Virus record (IMG/VR): IMGVR_UViG_3300005340_000003
Location: 10,599 to 74,598 of that record
Length of the DNA: 64,000 nucleotides
DNA from: a virus
Strand: one strand, 5' to 3'
Position 1 is the stretch's first letter, and every line of letters starts with the position of its first letter. Below the pieces are notes generated by a model. It did not search any database, was not told where the DNA came from, and saw only the letters and a list, made by a program, of their open reading frames with translations. Positions 9,279 through 27,040 of the stretch are shown piece after piece. The position numbers and the translations under genes are program-made.

Positions 9279-9332
9279 GTGGGTCGTTTATTCGACTTCA
9301 CTACTTATCGCACCCTATCCAACGAATGTCAA
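9279..9332 (-). promoter_or_regulatory. Sigma70-like promoter plus AAUAAA-loop leader hairpin
   Basis: TTGACA-N17-GATAAG, then GTGAAGTCG-AATAAA-CGACCCAC. Confidence 0.6.
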
Positions 9333-11129
9333 ATGTTTTTTTGCCCGTGTAACTGCCACGTAGTAAATGTTTTGCTCCTCGTCGCCTTTATTCTTTTTGA
9401 AGGTCGCCGTCAGAATAAACACCCGGTTCCATTCGAGGCCTTTCGCCTTGTGAACGGAACTGAGGACAACAGAAGGCTTTGCGTTGCTGTCGGTATCCTG
9501 GAAAAGCGAGTAAATTTTCGATTCAATCTCGGCTACATTCCGAGCCCCCTCGGACACCGCCATCAGCGTATCCACTTGGTCGTTCACCTGGGCGATTTTC
9601 GCTTCCGCGTTTTTCGTCGCGCCAAAGCGAGCCCTCTGCTTGGTTCCCCAGGCTTCGAGCTTGCGGATGAAATCCGGCACGCTCTTCGCCCTGAGTTTCC
9701 GAACCATTCCGACTAGCTGCGCTCCAATGTCGCGTCCCTCGATCCGAGCCGGCGTTCCACGGCGGAGGAGGTTCAGGCATGCGCTCATGAGCGGAGCGTT
9801 GAGGCGGCTGAGGATCGCATCGCCGATCCGAGCATGTTCGAGAACGCTCACCACTTCATCCACCAAGCCCTCGGGAGCACTCGGGGCGGCTTTGTAATCG
9901 GTCACAATTTCAGCCGCAATTGCCACCACAGCCTTCGGGCAGCGGTAAGTGGTAGTCAGACCGAAGACCCGGGCTGAAAGACGCTCCTGCATCATCCTCA
10001 TGCCATTTTGAGCCGCTCCACGAAACGCATAGATTGCCTGCCGGTCGTCGCCCACGATGCAAATCCGACCGCCCGGTTCACAGCTTCGAATCGCCATTTC
10101 GAGTTGCGGGAGATTCATATCCTGGCTCTCATCCACCACCACGAGGCCGAAACGAGGGAAAACCCAATTCTTCACCACCGGCAACCAGACCATATCGTTG
10201 AAGCTGATTCGGCCCTCGTTGTCGCGTTCCTTGGCGGCTTCCAGGGCGTCGAAGGCCACTTTCGCGAGCTTCGCCACGGTCCAGCCGCCATCCGCTTCGG
10301 CCTCTGCTGCTGAGAAAATCCCCCGGTCGTTCGCGATGTCGATAAGTTGTTCGACGGTAGGGTTGAGGAGAAGGTTTTTCGCGAAGCCGACGATCCGTTC
10401 CACGCAACCAAGGACTTCCTCCGGGATATTCGGGCTAACCGCTTCGATCCGAGCCGCTTCCACCGAGGCGTCCGGCTTCACACCGGGCCAAACTTGCGTG
10501 ATGTAGAAAAAACCGAGGCTATGCAACGTCTTGATCTCCACGCGCTTGTCGGAGATTTTCTCTTCGGCTTCGATCTGGTTTTTCTTGTTGAAGACCGCGT
10601 AAAGGAGCTTCGTGATGTGGCTCGGAACGAAGGTGAAAGCCTGCTTAATGGTCGTCGTTTTGCCAGTGCCGGCCCGGGCTTGGACGACCGCATTGCCAGT
10701 GCCCGACGCGAACCATTGAAAAATCTCTTCCTGCTCTGCGGACCAAAAAACGGTGGGAATAGAAGGGATCGAACCTTCAACACCCGCGCTCAAACTATCA
10801 GTGCCAGTCGAGGCACCCGAGACGTTTGACGACTGCGCGGGCACGGAGCCATCCACTCCCGACAGTGACGGAACTTGGGCTTGTTCTTGAGGGTTGGTGG
10901 GATTGGTCGTCTCGTCAGACGTAGCGCCATTACCCCACAAGCAAATTTCCCAAGTTCCGTCACGGTCGTTTTTACTGCAAGAAACACCCTCATTTTTCAA
11001 GGTGTTCTTACTCGATCTCCAGGCATTCCAAAAAGCCGGTGTCGGCGCTGCGGTTCGGAGCGTCCGGATTCCCACTCGGGTATTCACGGTTTTCGGCTCG
11101 CTCCAGTTCAGTTGAATTGTTTCAATCAC
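9315..11129 (-). CDS. UvrD/Rep-like superfamily 1 helicase with N-terminal extension
   Basis: ARAGTGKTT, VVVDESQD, GDDRQAIYAFRGA, TYRCP, SVHKAKGLEW, YVAVTRAK. Probable leaderless GTG start at 11129. Confidence 0.92.
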   Translation of the reverse strand: MIETIQLNWSEPKTVNTRVGIRTLRTAAPTPAFWNAWRSSKNTLKNEGVSCSKNDRDGTWEICLWGNGATSDETTNPTNPQEQAQVPSLSGVDGSVPAQSSNVSGASTGTDSLSAGVEGSIPSIPTVFWSAEQEEIFQWFASGTGNAVVQARAGTGKTTTIKQAFTFVPSHITKLLYAVFNKKNQIEAEEKISDKRVEIKTLHSLGFFYITQVWPGVKPDASVEAARIEAVSPNIPEEVLGCVERIVGFAKNLLLNPTVEQLIDIANDRGIFSAAEAEADGGWTVAKLAKVAFDALEAAKERDNEGRISFNDMVWLPVVKNWVFPRFGLVVVDESQDMNLPQLEMAIRSCEPGGRICIVGDDRQAIYAFRGAAQNGMRMMQERLSARVFGLTTTYRCPKAVVAIAAEIVTDYKAAPSAPEGLVDEVVSVLEHARIGDAILSRLNAPLMSACLNLLRRGTPARIEGRDIGAQLVGMVRKLRAKSVPDFIRKLEAWGTKQRARFGATKNAEAKIAQVNDQVDTLMAVSEGARNVAEIESKIYSLFQDTDSNAKPSVVLSSVHKAKGLEWNRVFILTATFKKNKGDEEQNIYYVAVTRAKKHLTFVG

Positions 11130-11135
11130 GGGAGC

Positions 11136-11164
11136 ACTATCGCAGAGGATCGCCGGCACGTCAA
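11136..11164 (-). promoter_or_regulatory. Sigma70-like promoter for a leaderless helicase mRNA
   Basis: TTGACG-N17-GATAGT (with TGn) followed by 6 nt and GTG. Confidence 0.55.
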
Positions 11165-11180
11165 CAACTGTTTAAACATT

Positions 11181-11215
11181 TTAGCGGGCCTGATGGTTAG
11201 TATCAGACCCGCTAA
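11181..11215 (-). terminator. Strong hairpin, possible terminator
   Basis: TTAGCGGGTCTGAT-actaacc-ATCAGGCCCGCTAA, a 14-bp stem with a poor U-tract. Confidence 0.45.
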
Positions 11216-11240
11216 TTACTGAATCTCGAACCCAAATTAT

Positions 11241-11342
11241 TTCCGGTCTCTCCCGGAAGTCACGTTGCATGGTTTTCCGCAATTCCCTGACGTTAGTATT
11301 TTCCGCCTCACGGTATGGCTTTCAACGTTTAGCCGCTAGGAT
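11241..11342 (-). ncRNA. Candidate structured RNA
   Basis: Consecutive hairpins GGCT/AGCC, CCG-TGAGG-CGG, TTGC/GCAA and TTCCGG-GAGAGA-CCGGAA; possible ACGTT/AACGT pseudoknot. Confidence 0.35.
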
Positions 11343-11346
11343 GTTT

Positions 11347-12204
11347 TCAGATGCCGACGACCTTGTGGATGAACCCCATCAGGTCAGTGTCAGTAACGGC
11401 CTTGACTGCGAGGACCGGAACCGGTGCCTCGAATTTTCCCGTGTCTGTCTTGAAGGATTTCATCCTCGTTGAAAGACTCCAGGTGCGGGAAAAATACCCG
11501 TCCTGAAGGCACCCGAGCCGGCGCTGATAGTTGAAGGTGTTTTTCATGGCCTCCGTGTAAACAGAGCCCTTGCAGTTCCAGTATCCGACAGTCATCTTCC
11601 GACTGCCGACCGTGAATCCGAAAACCGCGCCGTCATCCTGGACGTGTGCCGGCTTTTCAATCGCCAGCAAAAGTTCCGTCATCGGCTCGAACCGGCGCAT
11701 GCCCTCCGCTTTCTTGAGTTTCCACTCGTTGTAATCGAGCGTGCCGCCGACTGCGCGGACCGCATCCTCGGTGTCCACGATCTCTCCGCCGACTTGACCG
11801 GCGAGTTTTTCCTGGAACTTCAGCCACACGATGCCGATCACGCAGATAACGACAGGCGGCAATTGCGCCCGAGTGATGACGCCCTGCTTCTGATCGATTT
11901 CAGCCGGCGAATACAGAATGGTTTCCTTGCCGAAAACGATGCTGCCCGGGGTAAAGTTCTTCCCAAGTTCTCCGACGCTGTAGGTGAGGTTCAGGCGAGG
12001 GAGGTTGATGTCCTTGAACCCTGGCAGGTAGTCACCGAGCTTGAAAGCATCCTTTGTCGCCGGCACGCCGGGAGAAGAAGACGCAACGGTTGTGGTGGTT
12101 TCGACTTTCACATCCGCTACCGGAGTGCTCACAGTCTTTGTTTCAACATCGATCACCGGAGCCGGTGACGATCCGCTATCATTTCCGAATTTGACTTCAG
12201 GCAT
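11347..12204 (-). CDS. Putative ssDNA-binding or recombination protein
   Basis: DINLPRLNL motif, low-complexity N-terminus and location near exonuclease and helicase genes; function inferred. Confidence 0.45.
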   Translation of the reverse strand: MPEVKFGNDSGSSPAPVIDVETKTVSTPVADVKVETTTTVASSSPGVPATKDAFKLGDYLPGFKDINLPRLNLTYSVGELGKNFTPGSIVFGKETILYSPAEIDQKQGVITRAQLPPVVICVIGIVWLKFQEKLAGQVGGEIVDTEDAVRAVGGTLDYNEWKLKKAEGMRRFEPMTELLLAIEKPAHVQDDGAVFGFTVGSRKMTVGYWNCKGSVYTEAMKNTFNYQRRLGCLQDGYFSRTWSLSTRMKSFKTDTGKFEAPVPVLAVKAVTDTDLMGFIHKVVGI

Positions 12205-12253
12205 TTTAGTTTTGTGTTTAGTGTTTAACCGACATTGGTGGACACTCCTAGTG

Positions 12254-12463
12254 TTAGCTAGGAAGGACTCCAGCCCTAACAGGCCCCGTCCTCACATTTG
12301 GTGATGTCCGACAGTTTACCATCCGACTCGATTTGGCGAACCATTCTCCGCCGTCCGCGTTGACTCCGTGGTGAACGAAGTAATGCGTGTCGGTTTCCCG
12401 GAGGACTTCCCCGGTGAAGACCACATCGAATTCTCCGCGATTGATTTCGACTCGTGTTTTCAT
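12254..12463 (-). CDS. Hypothetical protein
   Basis: 69 aa; ATGA-coupled to the upstream gene. Confidence 0.5.
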   Translation of the reverse strand: MKTRVEINRGEFDVVFTGEVLRETDTHYFVHHGVNADGGEWFAKSSRMVNCRTSPNVRTGPVRAGVLPS

Positions 12464-13461
12464 AGATTGTTCGCTTCATTTTGGATGTAAGCGCAAAGCC
12501 TTTCCAGGTTCGCGCCGATATTCGCGATGACCCGCCCGCCCCGATCCGTTTGCGTAATCGGCCTGGGTGTTTCCCAAAGACGTTTCGAAAACTCCAAAAT
12601 CTTTTCCTTGTCCGGGGCGAGCGCGGCTTTCTCTTCCGCCAATCGCACGGCGAGTTGTTCGGCGGCGAGTTTATCCCTCGCAGCCTTCGCTTCGCGTTCC
12701 AGCTTGGCGACCGCTTCGTTCGCTTTCGCGACGAGGGCCAGCTTTTCAGCTTTGAGTCGATTCGCTTCTGCTTCTAATTTCGCCTGGGCCGATTTGCGTT
12801 CGTCCGCAAGTTGTTTCTCAAGTCGATCCCGGGCGATTTCAGCGGCTTTGCGAGCGGCTTCCCGTTCGGCGGCTTCTTTCTTCAATCGTTCGTTCTCCGC
12901 ACGCTGCGCTTCGATTCGATCTGCTTCCGCTTTACGGACGGCTTCCGCCGCTTCGCACTCCAGTCTCAATCGTTCGAGTTTCGCGGTATGGGTAGCGATT
13001 GAATCCTTCAACAAGCCGGAATATTCAGCATCGGTCAAATCCGCTAAATCGATAATGACAGGGGCGGAGAGATACGGACCAAGTTCAGTGGTCCGCGATT
13101 GACGGACCTCGATTCGAATTCGTTCGGTTTCCCGTTCCGCAAAAGTTTCCTGCAACAACAACCGCTCTTCGAGTGGTTCGAGTATGCGAAGCAATTCGTT
13201 TTTGCCGGCGTCGATCTTCCGGCTCTCCTCCAGAACGCTTTCCTTCAATTCCCGATGCTTGTGCGTAATTGCAACGCGAAGGTTTTTGATGGTGAGCCGA
13301 GTCGCCCGGGCGAGTTTCATTTCGGCGACTTGAGAGACATCTGTTACGGTAAGGGTTTCCGCCGTGGTTTTCAACTTCTCCGCCTGGGACTTGAAGTCGT
13401 CCCAAACGATCAATTGTTTCATCCGTTCTCCGGGTAGTGAGTTTACAATTTCAACTTCCAT
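12460..13461 (-). CDS. Coiled-coil protein (DUF1351-like)
   Basis: ARATRLTIKNLRVAI...SRKIDA...LEPLEERL followed by a long E/A/K/R coiled coil. Confidence 0.6.
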   Translation of the reverse strand: MEVEIVNSLPGERMKQLIVWDDFKSQAEKLKTTAETLTVTDVSQVAEMKLARATRLTIKNLRVAITHKHRELKESVLEESRKIDAGKNELLRILEPLEERLLLQETFAERETERIRIEVRQSRTTELGPYLSAPVIIDLADLTDAEYSGLLKDSIATHTAKLERLRLECEAAEAVRKAEADRIEAQRAENERLKKEAAEREAARKAAEIARDRLEKQLADERKSAQAKLEAEANRLKAEKLALVAKANEAVAKLEREAKAARDKLAAEQLAVRLAEEKAALAPDKEKILEFSKRLWETPRPITQTDRGGRVIANIGANLERLCAYIQNEANNL

Positions 13462-13462
13462 A

Positions 13463-14731
13463 TTATTCTTTCGTTTTCTCCGCCTGCAAAAATACTGCTG
13501 GCGAGCCTCGTTCTACTACATTCGCGGCCTCCAGACAACTCTTGAATTCTTGGATCGCATGTTTTTTACTGCCGCGAGGTGCCTTCGCTCCGATTGAGTC
13601 CTCAATCGCGCCAATGCTCACGTCGAGCGCCTGGGCGTATTCTTCCTCCGTCAAATACCGCAATGCCTCGCGCTTGAATCCGGCCATATCGGTAACTGCG
13701 CGGCTTCCGTCCCGTTGTTGCAGGCGGTATCCTTCAGGAAGCGGAGCACCACGAAGAACCCTCTCCGCCGTAACCTTCCGGAACGCTTCCGACCAGACTT
13801 TCATTACCTGGGCGAGTTGCATCCCGAGACCGGTATTCGCCGGGTCTTGAACCATACTCGGAGTCACTGAAGCCGGGATTTTAAGTGGGGCGAATTTGTT
13901 TCCGACAGTGCAAGCGAATTTGGTAACAGCGGGACAGATGCCCGTATGTTTGCAAAAAAGACAGTTCGGAATAGTCGGATTTGCAGATGAAAAATCTGCT
14001 TTAGCCCGGGCCATTCTCGCCCGTTCAACGACAACCGAAACCCGAAGGAGTAGCGACAGAATTTCGGAACGGTGGAAAACGTGATCGTCAAGAAAACCGA
14101 TTGCTGGCTGCTTGATCCAGAAGCGAACCGATTCGAGCTTCGGAAATTTTTTGAATAGACCCAAAACATAAGCGATTGCCTGGAGGTTGTTTTTGACTTT
14201 CTCGACCGACCACACACCAAATTTCCAATCGAAGGCTTCACAGTAAGTGCCAGCATGAGAGAAAAACGCCCGGTCGAAATATCCTGCGGTCGTTGATTGA
14301 ATCTTCAAAAGAATCGAGCCGAGACCAACTTTGATTTCGTCTTCGAATTCCAGGTCGTCAATCGGGAGGTAAGTCTCGGTCAATTCGAGAATCTCCGGAT
14401 ACGATCTGTGATCCGGAAGTTCAGAAATCATCGCATGCGCCCGCGCATCGACCGCCAACTGTTTTCGCTCTTCGTAAAAATCCAGGCACTCAGCCGCCAT
14501 CAAAGCGTCATCATCGCTGAGGGACTCATCGTCCATTCTGTCCTCAGTAACCTTGTGCATTTTGGTGCCGGCAATGGCCCGAATATGGCTCTCGTCTCTT
14601 CCTTCATAGCACGGACAGGCTTCGAGACTTTGTAAGGTGGAGGGAGAGTAAGGATGGTGAACGCGATCCTCTTGCTTCGGTCGTTGTTCATTTATCAGAG
14701 TTTGTTCTTTCAACGCTTGTTCGAGATTCAT
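13463..14731 (-). CDS. PD-(D/E)xK Cas4-like exonuclease (DUF2800-like)
   Basis: HHPYSPS...ACP, GTKMH, GYFD, DWKFG, NLQAIAY, CLFC-x5-CP. Confidence 0.85.
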   Translation of the reverse strand: MNLEQALKEQTLINEQRPKQEDRVHHPYSPSTLQSLEACPCYEGRDESHIRAIAGTKMHKVTEDRMDDESLSDDDALMAAECLDFYEERKQLAVDARAHAMISELPDHRSYPEILELTETYLPIDDLEFEDEIKVGLGSILLKIQSTTAGYFDRAFFSHAGTYCEAFDWKFGVWSVEKVKNNLQAIAYVLGLFKKFPKLESVRFWIKQPAIGFLDDHVFHRSEILSLLLRVSVVVERARMARAKADFSSANPTIPNCLFCKHTGICPAVTKFACTVGNKFAPLKIPASVTPSMVQDPANTGLGMQLAQVMKVWSEAFRKVTAERVLRGAPLPEGYRLQQRDGSRAVTDMAGFKREALRYLTEEEYAQALDVSIGAIEDSIGAKAPRGSKKHAIQEFKSCLEAANVVERGSPAVFLQAEKTKE

Positions 14732-15327
14732 TGGCCTTTTCCTCCCTCGTCGCCGACGATGGTTTTCTTGAACATCACCCGGGCTGCGGTGTGCCAGATG
14801 ACGATCCCTTCGGGCTGCATGAATCCAGGAGACGCCACGCTACCTTTCTCCGCTAGTTCCTGAAGTGTCCAGGCAACATTACCGGTTGTGAAAAGTCCTC
14901 GATACAGTGTCGGAACTACAAGGCAACACTCGGGCGGCTTTTCCTTCCCATCCGGACCCCATCGGTCCACATTGAAAAGTGAAAAGTGTTTTTCCGTCAA
15001 ACCGTAGCGACGTTGAATTCCTCCGCCCCACCATTCGCCGAAGTGCCGTCCCTGTCCGAGTTTCACCAATTCTTCCGCGTTGGACTGCACCCATTTCGCG
15101 AATCCGTAATTATCGTTGTCCGGAGTGATCCAACGGGTGCGACTGCCTGCGGCAATCCAGGGACCGTTCGAACCGACGCGAACCAAAGGAATGTCATTTG
15201 GATTTGCCACCTCGTCGAGAACTTCAGTGATGAAAATCTGTGCGTTAGTGCCGTCGATCTTTTCGGTGATAACACACTCGCGGCTGAGACGCGCCATTTT
15301 CGGAAACGTTTCAAAGGTGCTATTCAT
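14728..15327 (-). CDS. RNA ligase (Rnl2-like nucleotidyltransferase domain)
   Basis: Motif I TEKIDGTNA, GSRTRW, GEWWG, FSLFNV, motif IV PEGIV, FKK. Confidence 0.88.
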   Translation of the reverse strand: MNSTFETFPKMARLSRECVITEKIDGTNAQIFITEVLDEVANPNDIPLVRVGSNGPWIAAGSRTRWITPDNDNYGFAKWVQSNAEELVKLGQGRHFGEWWGGGIQRRYGLTEKHFSLFNVDRWGPDGKEKPPECCLVVPTLYRGLFTTGNVAWTLQELAEKGSVASPGFMQPEGIVIWHTAARVMFKKTIVGDEGGKGQ

Positions 15328-15511
15328 GATTCATAATTTCCTTCAGGCGTTGCTGGAGTTTCCAGAGGGCAATCGTTTCGATTTGTCGAAGTCGAGTGGT
15401 GGACACGCCGATCATCGCGGCGACTTCCACCGGGGATTTTATCGGGGTGAGTTTATCCGCAATCGCTGCGCCGATACGCATGCGTTCCCGATTCTCGGGA
15501 TTCATTGTCAT
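15320..15511 (-). CDS. Stand-alone sigma region-4 HTH protein
   Basis: SPVEVAAMIGVSTTRLRQIETIALWKLQ matches the sigma 4.2 pattern (S..R.RQIE..AL.KL). Confidence 0.7.
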   Translation of the reverse strand: MTMNPENRERMRIGAAIADKLTPIKSPVEVAAMIGVSTTRLRQIETIALWKLQQRLKEIMNHE

Positions 15512-15529
15512 ACTAACCTTTCGTGTTTT

Positions 15530-15552
15530 GACCGGGCTTTATTACCCAGGTC
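15530..15552 (-). promoter_or_regulatory. AAUAAA-loop hairpin
   Basis: GACC-T-GGGT-AATAAA-GCCC-GGTC upstream of the sigma-4 HTH gene. Confidence 0.5.
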
Positions 15553-15736
15553 GTTTCATTACCGCTTTTCGAAGATTCTTTCGCTTTGCACCGGTTGGCT
15601 TCCATCCGTGTTCGACCGCGTTCAGGAGCCGCTCTTGTGCAGCCGCCTTTTCAGGGGTCGTCGATTTCGCCTTGACGCCGTTCGGGGTCGATACTCTCAC
15701 TCTCGACTTGCTGATTTTGCGAATGGTTACTGGCAT
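15542..15736 (-). CDS. Small basic protein, leaderless
   Basis: 64 aa, K/R-rich; preceded by TTGTCG-N17-CACTATT-N5-ATG. Confidence 0.65.
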   Translation of the reverse strand: MPVTIRKISKSRVRVSTPNGVKAKSTTPEKAAAQERLLNAVEHGWKPTGAKRKNLRKAVMKRPG

Positions 15737-15983
15737 ATTGAAATAGTGTCAGAAAATTATTACTTCGACAACTTGTATTCTTTCGGCCTCGGATGATGGT
15801 GAACACACCCGAAAAGAGGACCGGTGGCAAAACAGCCGGAATTAAAAGGTTCCCCATCCACCACGGCGAAACCATGCTCCGGGGCTGGATAACCAATTGG
15901 GTCGAGCTTCGGGCATCCGCACTTCTTGAAATTGGAAATTTCTCCGCACCTCTCCCCCCAATAGATACAAGTATTACAAGTGT

Positions 15984-16340
15984 TCATTTGAGGATTCGGT
16001 AATGAGTGAACCGGATTCCGCAATGCCAGCAATATTTTACCGGATAGTCTCCAGGGAATATTCCCGCTTCAAATTGAACGATCATCGTTAGCGGAGTGTA
16101 AGCGACTGGAAGAGTTTTGCCACATACCCCGCAATCGAATCTATAAATCCCGTCGCTGAGGTGTTGCCCCTGGATCAGCACTGCCGGATAAATTGTCCGA
16201 AATTCCGTCTGGTTGTGATGCCACGCGAGGACGTTTTTCGCCGCGCATGCAACCCCGCCCTCTCCGGATTCAATCAGGAGAGCCAGCATTTCTTGAAATT
16301 TTTCCGAGGTAATGTCGATGTCTGAGGCGTCGATTTTCAT
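15984..16340 (-). CDS. Hypothetical Zn-ribbon protein
   Basis: CGVC...CWHC; ATGA-coupled to the helicase. Confidence 0.5.
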   Translation of the reverse strand: MKIDASDIDITSEKFQEMLALLIESGEGGVACAAKNVLAWHHNQTEFRTIYPAVLIQGQHLSDGIYRFDCGVCGKTLPVAYTPLTMIVQFEAGIFPGDYPVKYCWHCGIRFTHYRILK

Positions 16341-18484: not shown

Positions 18485-18675
18485 TAGGGCCGGGTGTATT
18501 CCTTAGTGGTCTCAGGAGTCCCGGCCAGAAAAGTGATGTGAGGTGCCCACGGAAAACCGGGCCGAAGGTTCACCGGGCAAAAAGCTATGTCGCGCTTGCC
18601 CCACAATTGACGCGCACGAGCTTTTGATACCCGGGTAAAGGTGGTTGCACCGGACTTGATAACAAAGTGCCTCAT
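18484..18675 (-). CDS. Hypothetical protein
   Basis: 63 aa ORF in an early operon. Confidence 0.45.
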   Translation of the reverse strand: MRHFVIKSGATTFTRVSKARARQLWGKRDIAFCPVNLRPGFPWAPHITFLAGTPETTKEYTRP

Positions 18676-18682
18676 AAACGAT

Positions 18683-19012: not shown

Positions 19013-19027
19013 TTTTCGGTTTTTTCT

Positions 19028-19099
19028 GGTCTGCCTTTATTGGCTGACCGTGCATATAACATATCAGAAAGGACGCACTCTGCAACAAGTATTTTCAAC
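19028..19099 (-). promoter_or_regulatory. Repeated early promoter plus AAUAAA-loop hairpin (copy 1)
   Basis: GTTGAAAATACTTG-TTGCAG-N16-TATGTT-N5-CAC-GGTCAGCC-AATAAA-GGCAGACC; near copy at 26969-27040. Confidence 0.75.
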
Positions 19100-19104
19100 T
19101 TTCA

Positions 19105-19323
19105 CTAACTCTTTGGTATTTCGGGAGTTGCGTCCGGATTGTCGAGAAAAGCGACGATCATCAACAGCACGTTTGAGTTCATTGCCAGGGCGAGAAGGAG
19201 TATCTGAAACCAGTCGAGTGTCGCCCAGGTTGCGGCAGTGAAGCCGACTGTTTTCACCAGAAATATGTTGGTCGCTGCCCACAGGCCATACAAAACCATC
19301 CGTGCGATTTTTCGAGGTGTCAT
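19105..19323 (-). CDS. Small membrane protein
   Basis: Two hydrophobic segments; ATGA-coupled to the FN3 gene. Confidence 0.55.
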   Translation of the reverse strand: MTPRKIARMVLYGLWAATNIFLVKTVGFTAATWATLDWFQILLLALAMNSNVLLMIVAFLDNPDATPEIPKS

Positions 19324-20219
19324 CGCTTGAGGGTTCGCGCAGAGATTACCGGCGAGTATGCGCTGAGTGTGCCGGCAGCATTTTGAGATTGCACGCGGAA
19401 AAAATACGTTCGGTCCCGGCGCAGTCCGGTGTTCGAGTAATAGGAATTGGAAGTGGTCGCAACATATTTGTTGTCTCGCTCCACACGGACCGTCACGGCC
19501 TCGGGCGGGGCGTCCCACCTGATGTCTATCCTGCTCGCGCTGATAACCGTTGCTCGGAGGTTCGTCGGCGCAGCCGGCACTGTAGGCACCGCTACAGTAA
19601 ACGCGGTATCCGGTCCATCCGTCCAGAGGCCGGAAGCGTTCTGAACGGCGAGGTGGCACCTCCACTGCCCGGCAGGAGCGTCAGCCGGAACAATCCAGGT
19701 TCCGGTGAAGTTCACGGTCTGTCCAGGCTGCACGCTGACATTGATTACCTCCGGAGAAAAGTCGTCGAACGGTCCTCCGGTATTTGTCGCTCCAGGACGC
19801 CGAGCGGTGATAACGGATTTCGCCGCGATGAAAACCGTGGTGGTGTCGTTCTTGAGGGTCGCGTTTGCGGTGATAGTCTGCCCTCGATTAAAAATGGTCG
19901 AATTCAGGACAGGAACACTCAAGACGATATTCCCGGACGCGGGCGGTGGCGGAGAATACGCGAGGACGTTGCTCTGCGGGGATTCGCCGGCTGAATTGAA
20001 GGCCGTCACGTAATACTGATATTGATTCGGATTCGAGACGGAGACCGTCACGGGTGGCGACGTTGGCGAAACTACCACGGCAAACGGAGCGGAATTGACG
20101 GCCTGATAAAGCCGGTAGCCGTCCGCGTTCGACACGGTGTCCCAAGTGAGCGTGAGGCTATCCGACTGTGCGACGAAGCTGCACAGGCCGGCCAGTAGTG
20201 CGATTAGTTGCTTTTTCAT
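19320..20219 (-). CDS. Secreted fibronectin type III / Ig-like domain protein
   Basis: Signal peptide MKKQLIALLAGLCSFVAQS; FN3 motifs LTLTWD...YYVTAFNSAGES and PAAPTNLRA...IRW...GL...TYFFRVQSQNAAG. Confidence 0.85.
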   Translation of the reverse strand: MKKQLIALLAGLCSFVAQSDSLTLTWDTVSNADGYRLYQAVNSAPFAVVVSPTSPPVTVSVSNPNQYQYYVTAFNSAGESPQSNVLAYSPPPPASGNIVLSVPVLNSTIFNRGQTITANATLKNDTTTVFIAAKSVITARRPGATNTGGPFDDFSPEVINVSVQPGQTVNFTGTWIVPADAPAGQWRCHLAVQNASGLWTDGPDTAFTVAVPTVPAAPTNLRATVISASRIDIRWDAPPEAVTVRVERDNKYVATTSNSYYSNTGLRRDRTYFFRVQSQNAAGTLSAYSPVISARTLKR

Positions 20220-20764
20220 TATGCGTTGGTTAGTTGATGGTAACGTGAGAGAAAAGTGTGTTCGACAGAATCGAAATCGAATCGTCGGTAATCCGACATG
20301 AGTTTGAAATCCCAATGCCATTTTACCGGAGGAATAACACGCGGAACGTCACCGGGATGGTCTGGAAAAAAATACTCGTGCTCCAGGAAAAGTGCCGCTG
20401 CGTCCGCTTGCTTGACTTGCTCGTGAAACGGAAATTCAAAGTTGAGGGCGTCAGCGATTGTTTTCATTAGCCGGTGTTCGATGATTTGATATTCCGGCAT
20501 GTCGTTTTTTACCGGTTTCGCGATGTCGGAGAGTCCGAGTCCTTCACTCGCATCGTGCAGTAGTGCAGCCCGCGCATGCTCGGGTTCCACCATAAAAGAA
20601 ACGTGGATCGAGTGAAGACCGACTGAATAAAATCCTGGGAGGTGCCCATTCCATCGGCAGAGTCGAGAAAGTGTGTGGGCTATGTCTTCGATCCGAATGT
20701 CCGAGGGTTCTGCATCGAGGGGGTAAAATGGATCACCTGAAAATGTTCTAATGTATTCGCTCAT
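20219..20764 (-). CDS. HD-domain 5'-deoxynucleotidase (YfbR/YfdR-like)
   Basis: IEDIAHTLSRLCRWNGH, YSVGLHS, ALLHDASE, DIAKPVK, VKQAD. Confidence 0.88.
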   Translation of the reverse strand: MSEYIRTFSGDPFYPLDAEPSDIRIEDIAHTLSRLCRWNGHLPGFYSVGLHSIHVSFMVEPEHARAALLHDASEGLGLSDIAKPVKNDMPEYQIIEHRLMKTIADALNFEFPFHEQVKQADAAALFLEHEYFFPDHPGDVPRVIPPVKWHWDFKLMSDYRRFDFDSVEHTFLSRYHQLTNA

Positions 20765-20778
20765 GGTTTATTTTTAGC

Positions 20779-20976
20779 CTACACGTCCTCCGGTGTGCTC
20801 ACAACTTCTATTCGGAGGATTTGAAAAGTCGTTTTTCGATACTGTCTCTCACGAGGTTTCAACACCTTGTCCCGATACCAAAGAGCGCCATCGAGGGTTT
20901 GATGGTCCGACCCCACAATAAAAGGTTTTTCATCTTTGTTTGTGGCCTCAACTTGCCAGTATGTTCGAACGATCAT
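20779..20976 (-). CDS. Hypothetical protein
   Basis: 65 aa ORF in operon. Confidence 0.45.
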   Translation of the reverse strand: MIVRTYWQVEATNKDEKPFIVGSDHQTLDGALWYRDKVLKPRERQYRKTTFQILRIEVVSTPEDV

Positions 20977-20981
20977 AAAAA

Positions 20982-21160
20982 GTTGCCGGTTACGTCTCCG
21001 GCTCCCGCCGTTGATAGACGGGACGATTTAATATTTGCCGCGTATCGTTAGCGTGCCCACGGCTATGTTTTTCTGTTGAATCGGCGACATCTTTTACCCG
21101 ATGCCGATAGCCCGATCCCTTCACCGGCTGATTTGTCCCGGTTATCGACCGGAGCCGGTT
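20982..21160 (-). ncRNA. Candidate structured RNA
   Basis: Nested helices ACCGGCT/AGCCGGT, CCGGT/ACCGG, GGCTAT/ATAGCC, TCGGC/GCCGA, TCCCGTC/GGCGGGA and GCCGG/CCGGC in a ~210-nt gene gap. Confidence 0.4.
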
Positions 21161-21190
21161 CGAAATTGCGTGCCGTCCCTCTCTTAGAAA

Positions 21191-21424
21191 TCACTTCCGT
21201 TGTCTCCGTTCCAGGAGTGCCGTAATTGCGAGAGCTACTCCGGCGAACGCCAGGATGCCTCCAAGGAAAACCACCACCAGCCCGAGGCTAATCCAAAGCG
21301 GAGACAGCACCCACCACCAGGACCAGTCGATTACGTGACAAAGTTTCAGGGTGATAAAAACGATGGTGAGAAGTCCTCCGAAACTGATTCCTCCGCTTGA
21401 CGCTTGTGTTTTTGTGTCGCTCAT
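21191..21424 (-). CDS. Small membrane protein ([11 protein letters not shown] family)
   Basis: [19 protein letters not shown] plus transmembrane segments; a widespread phage family. Confidence 0.75.
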
Positions 21425-21993
21425 AGTTTTGCTGTTACGATTCCGGTTTGTGATTGATACTTTCCTTTTTTGTCCGCGTAACTGACATCGCAGCCGCCAG
21501 CGTCACCTCGGAAGAAAAGCACCTGGGCGATGCCTTCGTTAGCGTAGATTTTCGCCGGCAATGGAGTTGTGTTTGAAATCTCCAGGGTGACGAAGCCTTC
21601 CCACTCGGGCTCGAAGGGTGTCACGTTGACGATGATCCCGCACCGGGCGTATGTCGATTTGCCGAGGCATACCGTAATCAGGTCGCGAGGAATTCGAAAA
21701 TACTCCACACTCACGCCGAGGGCGAAACTGTTCGGCGGGATGATTACGTATTCTTCCGTCTGCACGGTAACGAATGCCTCGTCCTTGAAAGCCTTCGGAT
21801 CGACAAGGGTGCCGTGGACGTTGGTGAAAATCTTAAACTCATTCCCGATGCGGATGTCATATCCGTAGCTGCTCAAACCGTAGGATATTTTCCCGTCGCG
21901 CACTTGATGATCCACGAAGGGGTCAATCATCGGCTTAAAGTTGCCGGAGGTAAAACATCGGGCGGTTATTTGATGGTCGGCGAGGACGCTCAT
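21421..21993 (-). CDS. dcd: dCTP deaminase
   Basis: [47 protein letters not shown]; start MSVLAD at 21993. Confidence 0.97.
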
Positions 21994-22184
21994 ACGCTCA
22001 TGTCTTCGTGTTTTTCTTGTGTGCGATTGAATCGACGACCGGGATGGTGACTCGTTCGCCCTTTTCGTTGATGAATTCTCCGGCCTCCTGGTTGCCTTCA
22101 CCGGGCCAGAACGGATTCTGGCCGAGTGAATCTTCCGGGCGACCTTCGATTTTGTTTCCTGGTTTTTTCTTTCTGCTCATATTT

Positions 22185-22427
22185 TTAGAACGGGTTGTCA
22201 TCGGGTTTCTTTCGAAAATAAATGAAAAGGTCTCCGGTATCGTCGGTGGTTAAAACTGTGTCCCAACCAAGTAAGCCGGCTGTTGCAACGCGCTCCCGCA
22301 AGGACTTCAATTCCCACCCGTTGCTGAGTTTGTCCTTCGGGTATCTCCACAAGAGTCTGGTGCGCGGAAACTCCACGGAGTATGCCCACGCCTGGGCTCG
22401 GGCGAGAAGTTTTGTGTATGGGTTCAT
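22185..22427 (-). CDS. Hypothetical protein
   Basis: ATG at 22427 overlaps the kinase stop. Confidence 0.5.
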   Translation of the reverse strand: MNPYTKLLARAQAWAYSVEFPRTRLLWRYPKDKLSNGWELKSLRERVATAGLLGWDTVLTTDDTGDLFIYFRKKPDDNPF

Positions 22428-23440
22428 TGTGCGATCCTGGTAAATTCTTCGAGTGTGTAAATCCGGTTGCTCGGAGACGGGACACTCGGGTCCGACCAGA
22501 TGACTCGAAGTTTGTTGCCGGCGCGTTGTGCCGATAGTTTTTTCGTGAGGTCCGCGTCGAGGGAGTGGGCGAGTTTCTCCGACATATCGCGAAGCTCCGG
22601 CGACTCTGGCGTGAGCTTGCGCTGCGCGAGTCGGGCGGTCCACGATACAGGCGAACAGAGAATATGCCAGTGTTCGAAACCGCCAGCAGTGAGAGATTTG
22701 TATTCGTTCGCGAATCGGCAGTTGGTGACGGCGACACGCGCCGGCCCGAGGCCGAGGGACCGGTGGAATACCGACTTCACCCAAATGTCCTGATCGAGTC
22801 CGAAAAGTCCGAAGTCGGTTCCGGTGTTAACCAGGATTTTCTGGTTCGCCAGGGATCGAACCATCAGGCAAAACATTGCCCGCTCGGGAGTAAGTGGATA
22901 CTGCTCGTTGATTTCGTTGCGTCCCCACTGGCCGATTGTCTGGAGGGTTTTTCGAATGCCGGGGAGCGCCTTGTTGTCGGCGTCGATCCGAGTATTAAAA
23001 AGGTATTCCGCTAACACATACATCGGGTCCGCGAATCCGAGGACTGTCGCGCCGATACTTTTGGCGACGAAATCCTTGCCGGCGCAAAGCTTGCCGGTGA
23101 AGAAAATTTTCCGTGCAACTGAGGCGTGTGTTGAACTGGTCGCTGGAGGATTAGCGGTGGGAGTAGTTGCCTCAGCTTGCACGGTGGAAGTTAGTTGTGT
23201 GATCCTACCGACAACCGGCGCGGAGGCCGGCATCGGATCGGCGAAAATCGTTGCGCCGTGACGATCCGTTTGTTGTTTAAACGTGTCAGCGATTTCTTGT
23301 TTGCCCTCGGGCGGCACAACTGCACCGGTAACTTCGGGGTTATTCACGAAGTCAACCAGTCCGCGCAACGTGGCGGCGTCGGTGCCCATGTTGGATTTGT
23401 CTAGGGGCTTCTTCAAGGTCGTATCGGTAAGTTCATTCAT
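22424..23440 (-). CDS. Deoxynucleoside monophosphate kinase (T4 gp1-like) with N-terminal extension
   Basis: P-loop TGKLCAGKD, FADPM, RKTLQTIGQWGR, WVKS, TNCRFANE. Confidence 0.82.
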   Translation of the reverse strand: MNELTDTTLKKPLDKSNMGTDAATLRGLVDFVNNPEVTGAVVPPEGKQEIADTFKQQTDRHGATIFADPMPASAPVVGRITQLTSTVQAEATTPTANPPATSSTHASVARKIFFTGKLCAGKDFVAKSIGATVLGFADPMYVLAEYLFNTRIDADNKALPGIRKTLQTIGQWGRNEINEQYPLTPERAMFCLMVRSLANQKILVNTGTDFGLFGLDQDIWVKSVFHRSLGLGPARVAVTNCRFANEYKSLTAGGFEHWHILCSPVSWTARLAQRKLTPESPELRDMSEKLAHSLDADLTKKLSAQRAGNKLRVIWSDPSVPSPSNRIYTLEEFTRIAQ

Positions 23441-23714
23441 AAAAATTCCATGCTGATCGTATCACCACAAAACACCCAATTTTTTCCACGGCAGTATTCA
23501 CGAAAAAGTCCCTGCTCGCGCCAGGAACGATACTCAAAACCGGTTCGGCGCACAACTTCTGTTGCGAATCTTTTATCTCTCTCGCACAGAAAGGATAGGT
23601 TCGTTACGGGAGAAAAGCCGGAGGCGGCTGGTTCGCTCTGCAACTCTCGGGCGGATTTCGGTTGGTTGTTCACGAGCTATGTATCGCCAGTATGCCGCCT
23701 GGAAGGAATGCCAT

Positions 23715-23945
23715 TCAGACACATGAGCGGTTGTCGGTAGTTTGTTCTTCATAAAGTTTCCTCAATCCGCGACGGAGCTTCGCGAGGGCCTCTTGCTCGA
23801 TCTGCACGACACGTTGGCGGCTGAGCCCGAGGATGTCGGCGACTTGCTGGTGTGTTCGAAGTTCATAAGGTAGCATCGGATTTTTCACTGATCTAGCGGC
23901 TTTATCCGGTCGGTGCCGGATTCGGTATATTTCATTATCGTCCAT
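23715..23945 (-). CDS. Stand-alone sigma region-4 HTH protein
   Basis: RTHQQVADILGLSRQRVVQIEQEALAKLR. Confidence 0.75.
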   Translation of the reverse strand: MDDNEIYRIRHRPDKAARSVKNPMLPYELRTHQQVADILGLSRQRVVQIEQEALAKLRRGLRKLYEEQTTDNRSCV

Positions 23946-24019
23946 TGTCGTTCTTGTTGAAAAGTCCGATGATGAAAGCCACGAGACCGATAAGCAAAAT
24001 GAAAAATATGGCTGTCACA

Positions 24020-24376
24020 TTAGCATCCCCTGCATCCGTCGTCGATGTCCTCGGGCGCTTCCGGCTCAGGCCGAGCCATATCCGGATGATCCCACTCGTG
24101 CCGAAGATTCGTCACGGTGCCTGGATAAAGGACCATCCAAAATCGTTTGCCTGGAGTGACGCCGTGATCGAGAAAAGGATCGACCACTCCGATAGGCTGG
24201 ATCATTTCCGGACACGCGATGACTCTCTCAATGCAGCCGGGAGCGAGAATAACTTTCTGCCCCGGTAAAAGTTTCTCGTCTGAGAAAACTGGCGCGATTG
24301 CGACGTGAACGGCATCGCGTTGGATGTCATCGTAAGACCGCAGCAATTCTCCGAGCTTAGGTGAGTGTTTCGACAT
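24020..24376 (-). CDS. Conserved phage hypothetical protein
   Basis: RDAVHVA...GVVDPFL...LYPGTVTNLRHEWDHP. Confidence 0.65.
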   Translation of the reverse strand: MSKHSPKLGELLRSYDDIQRDAVHVAIAPVFSDEKLLPGQKVILAPGCIERVIACPEMIQPIGVVDPFLDHGVTPGKRFWMVLYPGTVTNLRHEWDHPDMARPEPEAPEDIDDGCRGC

Positions 24377-24797
24377 AAGGTGCTCCGAAAATCTGGTGTT
24401 CCGGGGAGGCGAGGTGGGCCTGATAGTTTTTGATGTTCTCTTCGCGACGGCGGATTTCCCGAGTTGCCGCCGTTTGAATGGTGATGAGCGGGTAAATCAC
24501 TTCCTTCGTGAAGTTCTCGCGGATGAAATCCACCTGAATTTTCCTGAGTTGCGTCGATGCCATCCGGAAACGGCGAACGGATCGCCTGAGTGCCCGGTGA
24601 ACCCGGTCGATGGGGGTGTGAGTGAACATCGTTTCAATCCGTTGGCCGAGCGACTTCGGCTGCTGTTCGCTGATCCAGTGTGTTTCCCGGCTCCGCATCA
24701 GGTTCCGGCGAAAAGTCCCGGTCATCCGAAGCTTCGGATTCGTTAGCTGCTCCGTCGCTGTTGACGCCGGTATCGTGTCCCTGTCTAGTTTTTGCAT
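24357..24797 (-). CDS. Hypothetical protein
   Basis: 146 aa ORF tiling the minus-strand operon. Confidence 0.5.
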   Translation of the reverse strand: MQKLDRDTIPASTATEQLTNPKLRMTGTFRRNLMRSRETHWISEQQPKSLGQRIETMFTHTPIDRVHRALRRSVRRFRMASTQLRKIQVDFIRENFTKEVIYPLITIQTAATREIRRREENIKNYQAHLASPEHQIFGAPYVETLT

Positions 24798-25023
24798 AAC
24801 ATTTATTCCTTCGTTTTAGTTCGTCTGTCAGTGGCAGAATCATTCCGCACCGGCAGACAAAATTCTTCGGATCGGCTGCTCGTGTCAGCCATATTGGTTC
24901 GATCTGTTCCACTTCGTTGTCTCCCATATCTAGTGACGCAATTTCGAGTCGCGTGCTGCTCTCCGCAACCACGGCAAGGTTGCTGATTGCGGAGGGCTTT
25001 CCAGTTGATTTTCCTCAGTTGCA

Positions 25024-25248
25024 TTATTGGTGAGAGTCGGAGACTTCATCATACATCGAGGGGATAAAAACCTCGGGCGTTTCATTGAAACGCCAATTAG
25101 GTATGATGTTCGCCCAGGACCAATTCTCCGCACCGTCAACATGGAGGAAAAATCCAGGTTTTTCTTTCGGCATTTCCGGATGATTGAGCGACAGCAAAAG
25201 CTTCTCGATCTCCGCCGCGATGTGTTGTTTTTCTGAGGTGCTGAACAT
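25024..25248 (-). CDS. Hypothetical protein
   Basis: 74 aa; LHVDGAENWSWANI. Confidence 0.55.
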   Translation of the reverse strand: MFSTSEKQHIAAEIEKLLLSLNHPEMPKEKPGFFLHVDGAENWSWANIIPNWRFNETPEVFIPSMYDEVSDSHQ

Positions 25249-25249
25249 A

Positions 25250-25474
25250 TTATTTTGAGGGTGCGCGGCAGATTGCTACGCCGTGCCCGGTTGAAACGAT
25301 GATGTAGGTGCTGCCGTCAATTTCGACTTTGCTTACTGTCAGGGACGAGGAAAATGTTTGCGACTGAGCCACGACCCGAATTTGCGCGTATTCCTCCGGC
25401 AGCTTCACGTCCGATTGAGGCGTGCAGCCGGCAGCGAGTGCCGCGATTAGTGCGAGGATTTTGATTTTCGTCAT
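25250..25474 (-). CDS. Putative lipoprotein
   Basis: MTKIKILALIAALAAGC lipobox. Confidence 0.6.
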   Translation of the reverse strand: MTKIKILALIAALAAGCTPQSDVKLPEEYAQIRVVAQSQTFSSSLTVSKVEIDGSTYIIVSTGHGVAICRAPSK

Positions 25475-25806
25475 ACGAATTGAGTGGATACTACAGTGAT
25501 GGTGACGGCGACACAACTTTGATTGAGACCGTCGCGGATAAATTTCGCGAGGCCGAGGATTTCGTGGGTTTTGTTGTCGGTGGTGAGAATCGACAAAATC
25601 CTCCCATCCTCACGGATGATGATCTTGTTCGGATCGACCCATCCGCCTCGGGTGTCGATCCAAGTGTAACCTCCGAAAAGCTCGCAGGCGAGTTTTTCGA
25701 TTTGCTCTCGGAGCGACCACATTTCGTGCGTGGTCGTGTCGAGCAGATCGTTGTTCCTGTCGCGCTCGATGCCGAAGGTGATTTCAGCTTTGATGGATTG
25801 GCTCAT
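25471..25806 (-). CDS. DUF3574/SAM-lyase-like protein (tentative)
   Basis: FGGYT...RGGW...RED...LAKFIRDGLNQSCVAV pattern. Confidence 0.4.
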   Translation of the reverse strand: MSQSIKAEITFGIERDRNNDLLDTTTHEMWSLREQIEKLACELFGGYTWIDTRGGWVDPNKIIIREDGRILSILTTDNKTHEILGLAKFIRDGLNQSCVAVTITVVSTQFV

Positions 25807-25807
25807 A

Positions 25808-26176
25808 TTAAAAGGTCCAGTCGTCGCCGGCGATTGTCGGCATTCGATTCGCTTCTCGCACGTTGGCGGAAAAGTTCCACCAGTCTTCGATGGCGCGTTT
25901 GGCGACGGCAAGATGAGTGAGATACTTCCGGCTATCGATGACGGTAGCATCATAATACGGGTTCAGGAAGAATTCCCGAAATTGTTTGATGGCGGCGATT
26001 TTTTTGTCGGGCCGGATGTTTCCCAGGTGAGTAACGAACGGTGCCATTGCCTCGAAAAATCGGGCGACATCCGGATCGAGTGCCGAGGGGCTGATGATGT
26101 CCAGTTCGAAATTATCGATGCCGAGCTTCGTTGCGATGATGGCGTGGACTTCTGCGAGTGTGAGCGTGATTTTCAT
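25808..26176 (-). CDS. Protein with a ribosomal bL12 C-terminal-like motif
   Basis: KKIAAIKQFRE...LAVAKRAIE. Confidence 0.45.
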   Translation of the reverse strand: MKITLTLAEVHAIIATKLGIDNFELDIISPSALDPDVARFFEAMAPFVTHLGNIRPDKKIAAIKQFREFFLNPYYDATVIDSRKYLTHLAVAKRAIEDWWNFSANVREANRMPTIAGDDWTF

Positions 26177-26463
26177 TGGCGAGTCTTTCGAACGCTGACG
26201 AGGTTTTCCGCCGTGGCGACTCCGGGCGTTCCGAAACGACCGCCCATATTCAAGGCGACGTATCCGGGAGAAATGATGACTGCGCGTCCGGTGGCATTCT
26301 TCCATTCCTGGCCGTGCATGCCACGACCAGCCGGAACGAGGATTGTCACGCGGTCGCCTGGGCGGATGCTGGCGAGGTAGCGTTTCACGCTGGCGGCGTA
26401 TTCACTGCCCATGCTCGCCGCGTCGGTCATTCGTTTTTCCAGTGTCACGGATTCACCACGCAT
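26173..26463 (-). CDS. Hypothetical protein
   Basis: ATGA-coupled ORF in an early operon. Confidence 0.5.
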   Translation of the reverse strand: MRGESVTLEKRMTDAASMGSEYAASVKRYLASIRPGDRVTILVPAGRGMHGQEWKNATGRAVIISPGYVALNMGGRFGTPGVATAENLVSVRKTRQ

Positions 26464-26663
26464 TCAATCTCAAAGTCTATGCTGTCTTTAAGAGCGCGGA
26501 GGCTTGGGCTGCCAACAATTTTCCTCCCACTGGGAAGCGTTGCACCCCATCGGTAGCAACGCACATACCCATTGGCGGCAATACCTGAACTAACAGTCCA
26601 TCGGCTATCCGCCTTCACGCGGAGGCAAGGTTTTTTGAAAATTTCGCAGCCTTTGTATTTCAT
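26445..26663 (-). CDS. Hypothetical protein
   Basis: 72 aa ORF in an early operon. Confidence 0.45.
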   Translation of the reverse strand: MKYKGCEIFKKPCLRVKADSRWTVSSGIAANGYVRCYRWGATLPSGRKIVGSPSLRALKDSIDFEIECVVNP

Positions 26664-26714
26664 GTTAGCCTTTCAGGTTGCGCCCGATGCTGGCGAGGAG
26701 TTGTTCGGCGGGGA

Positions 26715-26951
26715 TCATCGGGCACCTCCGGTCACGCCGCAGGCGGCGAGAAAAATGTTGCGGTTGAATCGGGGATTGGCGTCGGAGAAAACGTCTGCGA
26801 GGCGGTTTGCCATCCGTTCGATGGTGAAAACCCGGGTGTTGCCCTCAGCAATAGACTGCCCGTCCTGGCCGGGGAGATTGCGAAGTTGAATCGCAGCGTC
26901 ATATTGGTTCTTGATCGCTGCCGCCACTGCTACGAAGTCTTTTCTGCTCAT
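26715..26951 (-). CDS. Early phage protein (NPRF...FLAACG family)
   Basis: MSRKDFVAVAAAI...LADVFSDANPRFNRNIFLAACG. Confidence 0.7.
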   Translation of the reverse strand: MSRKDFVAVAAAIKNQYDAAIQLRNLPGQDGQSIAEGNTRVFTIERMANRLADVFSDANPRFNRNIFLAACGVTGGAR

Positions 26952-26968
26952 GATTTTTGTTTTTGTTT

Positions 26969-27040
26969 GGCCGGCGTTTATTCGCTGACCGTGGTTACAA
27001 CATATCAAAACCGCTGGAGTCTGCAACAACTATTTTCAAC
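26969..27040 (-). promoter_or_regulatory. Repeated early promoter plus AAUAAA-loop hairpin (copy 2)
   Basis: GTTGAAAATAGTTG-TTGCAG-N16-TATGTT-N5-CAC-GGTCAGCG-AATAAA-CGCCGGCC. Confidence 0.75.

Follow-up and report, generated by a model that had tools for sequence, protein, structure and literature searches.

Why should the leaders of several genes in one phage carry hairpins whose stems differ from copy to copy while the loop, AAUAAA, stays the same? The question is raised by the IMG/VR virus record IMGVR_UViG_3300005340_000003 (74,598 bp, here G0), from an uncultured soil phage, of which bases 10599–74598 form the window, the 64,000-nucleotide (nt) stretch analysed here and to which positions refer. 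A first-pass annotation had located five such hairpins on the minus strand between positions 9279 and 27040 and had proposed that they are a protein-binding site defining a regulon. All five are present, each being the minimum-free-energy fold of its own leader (−5.7 to −12.2 kcal/mol) with the remaining leader unpaired, and the AAUAAA hairpin is a real, conserved and uncatalogued leader RNA tag. As to what it does, our best explanation, to which we give roughly even odds (about 0.5), is a two-part cis-acting RNA leader tag that would give a sequence-specific reader a shared handle on translation or stability.

A fixed loop on replaceable stems

Each hairpin consists of an inner stem of 3–4 bp, one mismatch or bulge, an outer stem of 3–5 bp, and the hexaloop AAUAAA. 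The shared build has eight positions on each side of the loop with a single non-canonical position 3–5 pairs below it, which bears out the earlier description of a mismatch or bulge beneath the loop; sites 1 and 2 have one additional 5′ nucleotide relative to this build. Site 1 (9279–9301) reads GUG-AA-GUCG-AAUAAA-CGAC-C-CAC and scores 22.4 bits with the covariance model, site 2 (15530–15552), which is intergenic, reads GACC-U-GGGU-AAUAAA-GCCC-GGUC, and site 4 (19028–19049) reads GGUC-A-GCC-AAUAAA-GGC-A-GACC, with a fold z of −4.2 and 29 bits. Site 5 (26969–26990) is GGUC-A-GCG-AAUAAA-CGC-C-GGCC. For site 3, previously given as 18429–18448, the hairpin stands with its pairing and extent redrawn; UCA-C-GGUC-AAUAAA-GACU-C-UGA at 18428–18449 is the better reading.

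The word AATAAA is not itself enriched, with 32 occurrences found and 31 expected. Flanked by a two-part stem, it occurs seven times over the 74.6 kb of the genome, whereas 100 first-order Markov simulations gave 0.85 on average and never more than 4, so that the hairpin lies above the background frequency at which the annotation would have given it up. Six of the seven are on the early-gene strand, and the five counted copies are all located in leaders. The sixth minus-strand hairpin (7852–7873) was treated as a chance occurrence; its arms are weak, it lies in frame within coding sequence (G-P-N-K-R-L, the same frame in the closest relative), and its arm pairing is not kept there.

That relative, G001 (IMGVR_UViG_3300010400_000004, 74,533 bp), shares ~66–84% nucleotide identity with G0 over ~42 kb and has an orthologous hairpin at sites 5, 4, 2, and 1; site 3 is absent from it. 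At its site 1 the inner stem is kept and the outer stem is lost, at site 5 both sides of the inner stem have changed, GCC/GGC replacing GCG/CGC, and at site 2 the stem has been replaced throughout (GCUGG-A-GC/GC-G-CCAGC). A third lineage, the metagenome contig L092, is ~67% identical to both genomes and keeps one copy, at site 2, between the same two genes and on yet another stem (GGUCG-C-AC/GU-C-CGGCC). Site 2 thus presents three unrelated stems around one loop across lineages that are ~67–72% identical.

We aligned the ten copies from these three phages on their loops. Paired cells amount to 77.5%, compared with 49.8% in shuffles, and the covariation score is 0.606 against 0.186 when shuffled; none of 500 shuffles scored as high, and sliding the 3′ partners gave at most 0.161. 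The loop is identical in 10/10 copies, including the U at position 3, despite full stem replacement. The claim that the stems differ yet stay paired around an invariant loop is therefore upheld. The copies had been picked by requiring pairing, which is why we place the main weight on the independent evidence, namely enrichment and conservation at orthologous positions.

The annotation had asked for a covariance model and for scans of related genomes and Rfam. Built from the ten copies, model R1 recovered only those copies in G0, G001, and L092, plus a weak match at the G001 counterpart of the coding copy (E 2.1). No match at E ≤ 1 came from the 1.36 Mb scanned of 79 relatives at a greater distance, beyond the intermediate ones with helicase matches at 50–60% identity (P0004–P0013). 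By these scans the tag is confined to a narrow sub-lineage. In 0.34 Mb of metagenome loci R1 gave four weak matches (E 0.26–0.78). Among the weak R1 matches is L095:4237–4258, a perfect 8-bp hairpin with the loop AAUGAA, six nt ahead of an ATG and downstream of its copy of the 64-amino-acid (aa) gene that precedes site 2 (the two proteins being 63% identical); this may be the tag in a diverged form. Rfam returned a single tRNA match for the whole window at the gathering threshold, and only two chance snoRNA-like matches, clear of the hairpins, for 9200–27100 at E ≤ 5. Searching IMG/VR for exact peptides of the helicase and of the 99-aa protein encoded after site 1 retrieved G001 only, and a pattern scan of IMG/VR for the core of sites 4 and 5 returned G001 and four unrelated matches, which is about the number we estimate for chance.

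Other loops were also considered. On the plus strand, the AAUAAAAC-loop hairpin at 50971–51002 is a terminator of the ordinary kind, U-run included, that G001 does not conserve. A naive tally of recurrent loops in the relatives was swamped by coding tandem repeats, and a stricter search found no other recurrent loop of 5–7 nt in relatives at 40–45% helicase identity.

Promoters, predicted 5′ ends and the A-rich start region

The annotation placed four of the hairpins just after a sigma70-like promoter, and this is correct. Sites 1, 3, 4, and 5 follow promoters of the extended −10 type, TTGNNN-N13/14-TGn-TAnnnT, which a generic sigma-70 scan missed and a dedicated extended −10 pattern found. 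At site 1 (9304–9332) the promoter comprises TTGACA (9332–9327), a 17-nt spacer with TGc, and GATAAG (9309–9304), and is kept in G001. Site 3 has TTGCAA-N13-TGg-TAGGGT (18453–18480). Sites 4 (19058–19085) and 5 (26999–27026) both have TTGCAG-N13-TGa-TATGTT, with AAAGTTGAAAATA as shared upstream sequence at site 4, and their promoter–hairpin cassettes are 78% identical across 88 nt. Between G0 and G001 these promoters keep their hexamers and differ in their spacers, a pattern typical of real promoters. We call the tagged genes early on the strength of promoter type only.

In 7/7 promoter–hairpin units of G0 and G001, the first paired base lies 7–9 nt past the −10 hexamer. With +1 assumed at the usual 6–8 nt after the −10, by which all 5′ ends given here are predicted, the RNA would begin 0–3 nt ahead of the stem at the four tagged promoters. 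The outer stems of sites 1 and 3 begin before the predicted +1 and are thus probably absent from the RNA. At site 1 only the inner 4-bp stem and the loop (9283–9296) lie downstream of the predicted +1, and at site 3 the inner stem starts from the predicted +1 to +3. That G001 has lost the outer stem of site 1 agrees with an outer stem lying outside the RNA.

Site 2 is built differently, and no recognisable promoter was found before it in any of the three lineages. Its hairpin occupies an intergenic gap of 12–30 nt and, in two of the three lineages, is touched or overlapped by the stop codon of the gene upstream; in G0 this codon, which ends the 64-aa gene, falls in the loop edge. The gene after this tag (15320–15511, minus strand) encodes a 63-aa sigma-70 region-4-like protein that is scarcely more than the region 4 helix-turn-helix, by a weak Pfam match. 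A longer sigma-like protein of 210 aa with a clear region 4 is encoded at the far end of the arm (2261–2893, minus strand). The 64-aa protein upstream of site 2 (15542–15736, minus strand) is very basic (MPVxIRK...RVSTPGGVKAK...LLNAVEHGWKPTG), is conserved clade-wide at 55–76% identity, has turned up on at least 191 stretches of soil, sediment, and groundwater metagenomes, and has no family match.

An ATG follows each hairpin. The spacers at sites 1–5 are 12, 18, 7, 15, and 17 nt long, so that the previously stated spacing of 8–18 nt becomes 7–18 nt, and the A-richness noted with it holds. Site 1 has AAAAAAAAAAAC (92% A) before the ATG of the 99-aa open reading frame (ORF) (9264–9278), site 2 has 18 nt of 50% A before the ATG of the 63-aa protein (15509–15529), and site 3 has AUAAAAU before the ATG of a 66-aa ORF (18418–18427). 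At site 4, 15 nt of 73% A precede the ATG of a 109-aa ORF (19010–19027), and at site 5, 17 nt of 76% A precede that of a 78-aa ORF (26949–26968). The A-rich tract is part of the unit, beyond the genomic norm, because the five tracts are 50–92% A (mean ~0.7) compared with 32–36% A at positions −20 to −1 of average gene starts. Across the whole genome a Shine-Dalgarno core precedes only ~20% of gene starts, and just upstream of the starts G is depleted and A is enriched, which suggests weak Shine-Dalgarno use by the host.

Promoter candidates of the same pattern that lack a hairpin put the predicted +1 on a start codon. One candidate (11136–11164, minus strand) leads onto the GTG of the UvrD-like helicase and is less certain for being a GTG start; the other (35723–35759, plus strand) leads onto the ATG, at 35757, of a 108-aa ORF conserved in G001. 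On these predicted starts, messages from this promoter pattern are apparently either leaderless or tag-first.

The genes behind the tags turn over between relatives. G0 and G001 carry different first genes behind sites 4 and 2, and only G0 has site 3 and the two genes that go with it. A single long block, of 575 nt (8778–9352), reaches 93% identity or more to G001, against ~70% elsewhere; it begins just upstream of the site 1 promoter and contains that promoter, the hairpin, the 99-aa ORF, and the start of the next gene. The 99-aa protein, whose only Atlas match is a helical hypothetical phage protein, is 100% identical in G001, with seven synonymous changes in its gene. Its ORF (8967–9266) and a 63-aa ORF at 18484–18675 are restricted to the lineages that carry the tag. 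The block looks like a recent exchange of a promoter–tag–gene cassette. Small-ORF turnover is, however, widespread along the arm and not confined to the hairpins, so an enrichment of gene replacements at the hairpins is not demonstrable; for the same reason, cassette shuffling of the kind described for promoter-early stem-loop (PeSL) elements is suggested as a side possibility rather than as the main function.

How the leader tag may work, and alternatives

In the explanation that we prefer, the first part of the tag is the 22-nt hairpin, a two-part stem free in sequence under the fixed AAUAAA hexaloop, placed at the predicted 5′ end of four transcripts whose promoters are of the host type (sigma-70, extended −10); the fifth tag lies inside an operon between two genes. 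The second part is the unstructured A-rich tract of 7–18 nt up to the ATG, which would serve as the ribosome landing zone. A paired 5′ end would protect the message against 5′-end-dependent decay, and the hairpin would leave the A-rich start region free of pairing with upstream RNA. The handle for a single trans-acting reader, most simply a phage or host protein, would be the invariant loop; sitting 7–18 nt away from the start codon, such a reader would jointly determine for every tagged gene how 30S subunits load or how long the message lasts. A sequence-specific reader is the simplest account of a fixed loop with stem turnover, since a loop kept in every copy while the stems are replaced is more than protection needs. 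The anatomy fits a 5′-terminal protective stem-loop joined to an open A-rich start region, and a 5′-terminal stem-loop stabilises the ompA/papA mRNAs in E. coli (Emory, Bouvet and Belasco 1992, as cited in PMC3997798). Of the proposed regulon, what is upheld is that a real, strand-specific element tied to promoters and starts defines a small set of co-tagged messages. Of the mechanisms offered with it, the 5′ stabiliser and the translational operator both fit this anatomy; antitermination of the boxB/put type fits less well and has no evidence favouring it.

Structure, conservation, covariation, strand, and position are observed properties of the hairpins; from them we infer RNA rather than DNA as the active form and a reader that may be of phage or host origin and may act in either direction. 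A folded single strand, in the simplest case the mRNA, is more likely than a duplex operator because only the asymmetric centre is fixed and the arms keep complementarity, not sequence. In addition, GGUC/GACC-like arms stand at different distances from the loop, the distance from the −10 to the loop varies from 11 to 16 nt, one copy is promoterless, all 10 copies are in the sense orientation, and in that orientation our reading of the stems counts five G-U pairs against one A-C mismatch.

Several points weigh against the tag being read in this way. On their own, the inner stems at sites 1 and 3 are of low stability (−2.4 to −3.7 kcal/mol), the start sites and even the transcription of the hairpins are predictions from sequence, and a plain stabiliser would need no fixed loop. 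None of the proteins encoded beside the hairpins matches an RNA-binding family, and no reader was identified among them. The tag is carried by only three lineages, and since sites 4 and 5 are paralogues and site 1 lies inside a recently exchanged block, the independent observations come to about four loci, of which only site 2 has three diverged versions. A bolder extension, which we regard as possible though doubtful, makes the hairpin an address label for a phage-encoded RNA-binding factor that marks the phage's own leadered messages, protecting or co-switching them during the shutdown of host messages, as one instance of a wider habit of lineage-specific loop tags in soil phages.

A rather unlikely alternative is that the hairpin acts by structure only, as a 5′ cap and insulator to which no dedicated reader binds, its loop being fixed by the need for an A-rich, non-pairing sequence or by a general host factor such as ribosomal protein S1 or the A-R-N face of Hfq. 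Its position at the predicted 5′ end, the open leader, and the A-rich tract that follows all suit such a cap; Hfq and S1 prefer A-rich RNA or A-R-N triplets, and AAU-AAA can be read as two of these. The pre-ATG hairpin of L095, similar but with an AAUGAA loop, also speaks for this alternative. A loop identical in 10/10 copies down to U3 on replaced stems is, however, tighter than A-richness requires, site 2 is internal rather than 5′-terminal, and relatives at 40–45% helicase identity are wholly without the element. We consider it improbable that the hairpin is a nut/boxB-like site, at which an N-like phage protein would bind the nascent RNA and render RNA polymerase terminator-resistant across the early/replication arm. 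The boxB loop is A-rich, as is this one, and the distribution of one hairpin per early-type promoter plus one within an operon recalls nutL and nutR; but the AAUAAA hexaloop does not start with G and is not GNRA-like in any of the 10 copies, and four of the five copies begin at a predicted +1 to +3, which leaves no transcribed room for an upstream boxA, and are followed by an A-tract. Furthermore, terminator-like sites in the arm are at chance level (34 vs 26 ± 5 and 13 vs 16 ± 4), and no N-like family was found among the small proteins beside the sites.

The chances are slighter again that the element acts as DNA, either as a repressor operator at +1 to +22 or as a PeSL-like recombination or attenuation cassette that moves small genes. 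Its position overlaps that of classical operators, and the kinship of the cassettes at sites 4 and 5, the gene replacement after sites 4 and 2, the G0-only module of site 3, and the 575-nt near-identical block at site 1 also count in favour; PeSLs are indeed promoter and stem-loop cassettes that shuffle small genes (PMC2839356). On the other hand, conservation is limited to an asymmetric 6-bp centre, the arms are spaced more variably than dimeric DNA binders allow, a promoter is lacking at site 2, no copy is followed by a U-run, so that none is a terminator, and the turnover of small ORFs extends along the arm beyond the hairpins. Very improbable, and disfavoured here, is an RNA-against-RNA switch in which the tags would form a kissing contact with a phage RNA whose loop is the complementary UUUAUU. 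Unusual tRNA-like RNAs are indeed encoded by the phage, but no conserved UUUAUU-loop hairpin was found beyond the reverse complements of the tags and none in the tRNA-like array, and six A-U pairs would make a very weak kiss. An 8-bp hairpin with a UUUAUU loop lies on the minus (sense) strand at 18044–18072, in a DUF7448 gene ~380 nt downstream of site 3; it is probably due to chance and is not conserved in G001, where the gene is absent.

Two further identities were rejected. The hairpin is not an intrinsic terminator, as an A-rich tract and not a U-run lies downstream, and on the opposite strand a T-run comes before the hairpin. N4-type phages carry a giant virion protein with a T7-like RNA polymerase domain and use hairpin promoters with a 5–7-bp stem and a 3-nt loop; here the loop has six nt, a canonical −35/−10 lies upstream, and the 2621-aa ORF beyond the window matches only DUF7178 and PHROG families of unknown function, with no RNA polymerase domain.

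Genome context and known systems

The G0 record ends in 50-bp terminal repeats. The minus-strand arm that carries the tags (window position 1 to ~31,000) holds genes for replication and nucleotide metabolism, namely a family A DNA polymerase, UvrD-like and DEAD/SNF2-like helicases, a PD-(D/E)XK exonuclease, a dNMP kinase, a dCTP deaminase-like protein, an RNA-ligase-like protein, endonuclease VII, and the longer sigma factor mentioned above; the plus-strand arm is structural and mostly without family matches. Hundreds of homologues of the DEAD-like helicase sit on contigs of ~70–76 kb, by which G0 is placed in a large uncultured clade. No close phage was found in the GenBank collection, and a scan of genome contigs gave only relatives of at most 33% identity, in metagenome-assembled genomes from many phyla, and so no host call. 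DNA of G0 was found in rhizosphere and soil metagenomes, whereas no RNA run was listed as containing the phage, and contigs of four soil/rhizosphere runs contain fragments identical to G0 in which the hairpins have no listed variation. At 21510–21680, contigs of all four soil runs stack up to a depth of hundreds, compared with ~1–5 elsewhere, with many variants; this is the conserved core of the dCTP deaminase-like gene, common to many other organisms.

Two other features of the genome were observed. A divergent non-coding region between the arms (30450–30760) contains a long inverted repeat, CTCGGTAGGTAGGTAA ... TTACCTACCTACCGAG, flanking an AT-rich core, together with a promoter-like TTGTCA-N18-CACTGTT 5 nt ahead of an ATG, and may be an origin or switch region. 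The palindrome GTTTAAAC occurs in 11 copies against 0.77 expected (0/100 shuffles had as many), at window positions 552, 1470, 5375, 11170, 23275, 27489, 36398, 39901, 46540, 47702, and 53798. Many of the copies lie directly upstream of gene starts in both arms, the palindrome is also present in G001 and in relatives further removed (L012, L013, and L032), and it is probably a second regulatory motif of the clade.

Post-transcriptional control in phages is known from few model systems, such as boxB with N, RegA, gp32, and the coat-protein operators, to which the tag adds a compact, testable RNA element from an uncultured soil phage lineage. No feature of sequence signals a specific reader more clearly than stem turnover under a fixed loop, and tagged A-rich starts without Shine-Dalgarno sequences, set against apparently leaderless messages, give a simple picture of how early messages are built. 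Should there be a reader, it would form with the 22-nt tag a new orthogonal RNA–protein pair, and if the tags of other soil phages work alike, a general layer of phage regulation has been overlooked.

The element resembles several known systems without matching any of them. Lambdoid nut sites share with it a small hairpin and a purine-rich loop in early-operon leaders, and boxB is read, as nascent RNA, by N. However, boxB has a 5-bp stem and a GNRA-like pentaloop (a 15-nt hairpin of the GAAAA or GAAGA type) accompanied by boxA, whereas the tag has the AAUAAA hexaloop on a two-part stem, no boxA, and a predicted location at the extreme 5′ end directly before the start codon. With the MS2/PP7 coat-protein operators and the eukaryotic iron-responsive element it shares a free stem, a fixed loop, a mismatch or bulge below the loop, and placement in the start region; there is no sequence similarity, and in those systems the reader is known. 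The ompA/papA stabilisers also place a stem-loop a few nt from the 5′ end of the message, the ends being predicted here, but as cited they have no loop sequence requirement (Emory et al. 1992, cited in PMC3997798), whereas the loop of the tag is invariant and one copy is internal.

PeSL cassettes of the T4-type phages RB49 and phi1 (PMC2839356, PMC4122927) likewise repeat a strong sigma-70-like promoter with AT-rich sequence upstream and an adjacent stem-loop, as four of the five copies here do; they stand mostly before small genes of unknown function, their stem-loop can lie just past the −10, and they are linked to gene replacement between close relatives. Their stem-loops, in contrast, are terminators with G/C tracts, and the whole cassette is conserved; here the stem is free and the loop fixed, an A-run follows, the folds are of −6 to −12 kcal/mol, and only sites 4 and 5 share a cassette. 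Moreover, one copy here is promoterless, the unit includes an A-rich translation tract, and the phage is unrelated to T4. The SAS/ESAS elements of Cluster K mycobacteriophages (PMC3203893) are also recurrent motifs in one orientation just upstream of the starts of a subset of non-structural genes; about half have imperfect inverted repeats, and a role in translation is suspected (PMC3203893). The SAS is, however, a 13-bp sequence that includes the ribosome-binding site, and the arms of the ESAS are conserved in sequence, whereas in the tag described here the arms are free and the loop is fixed.

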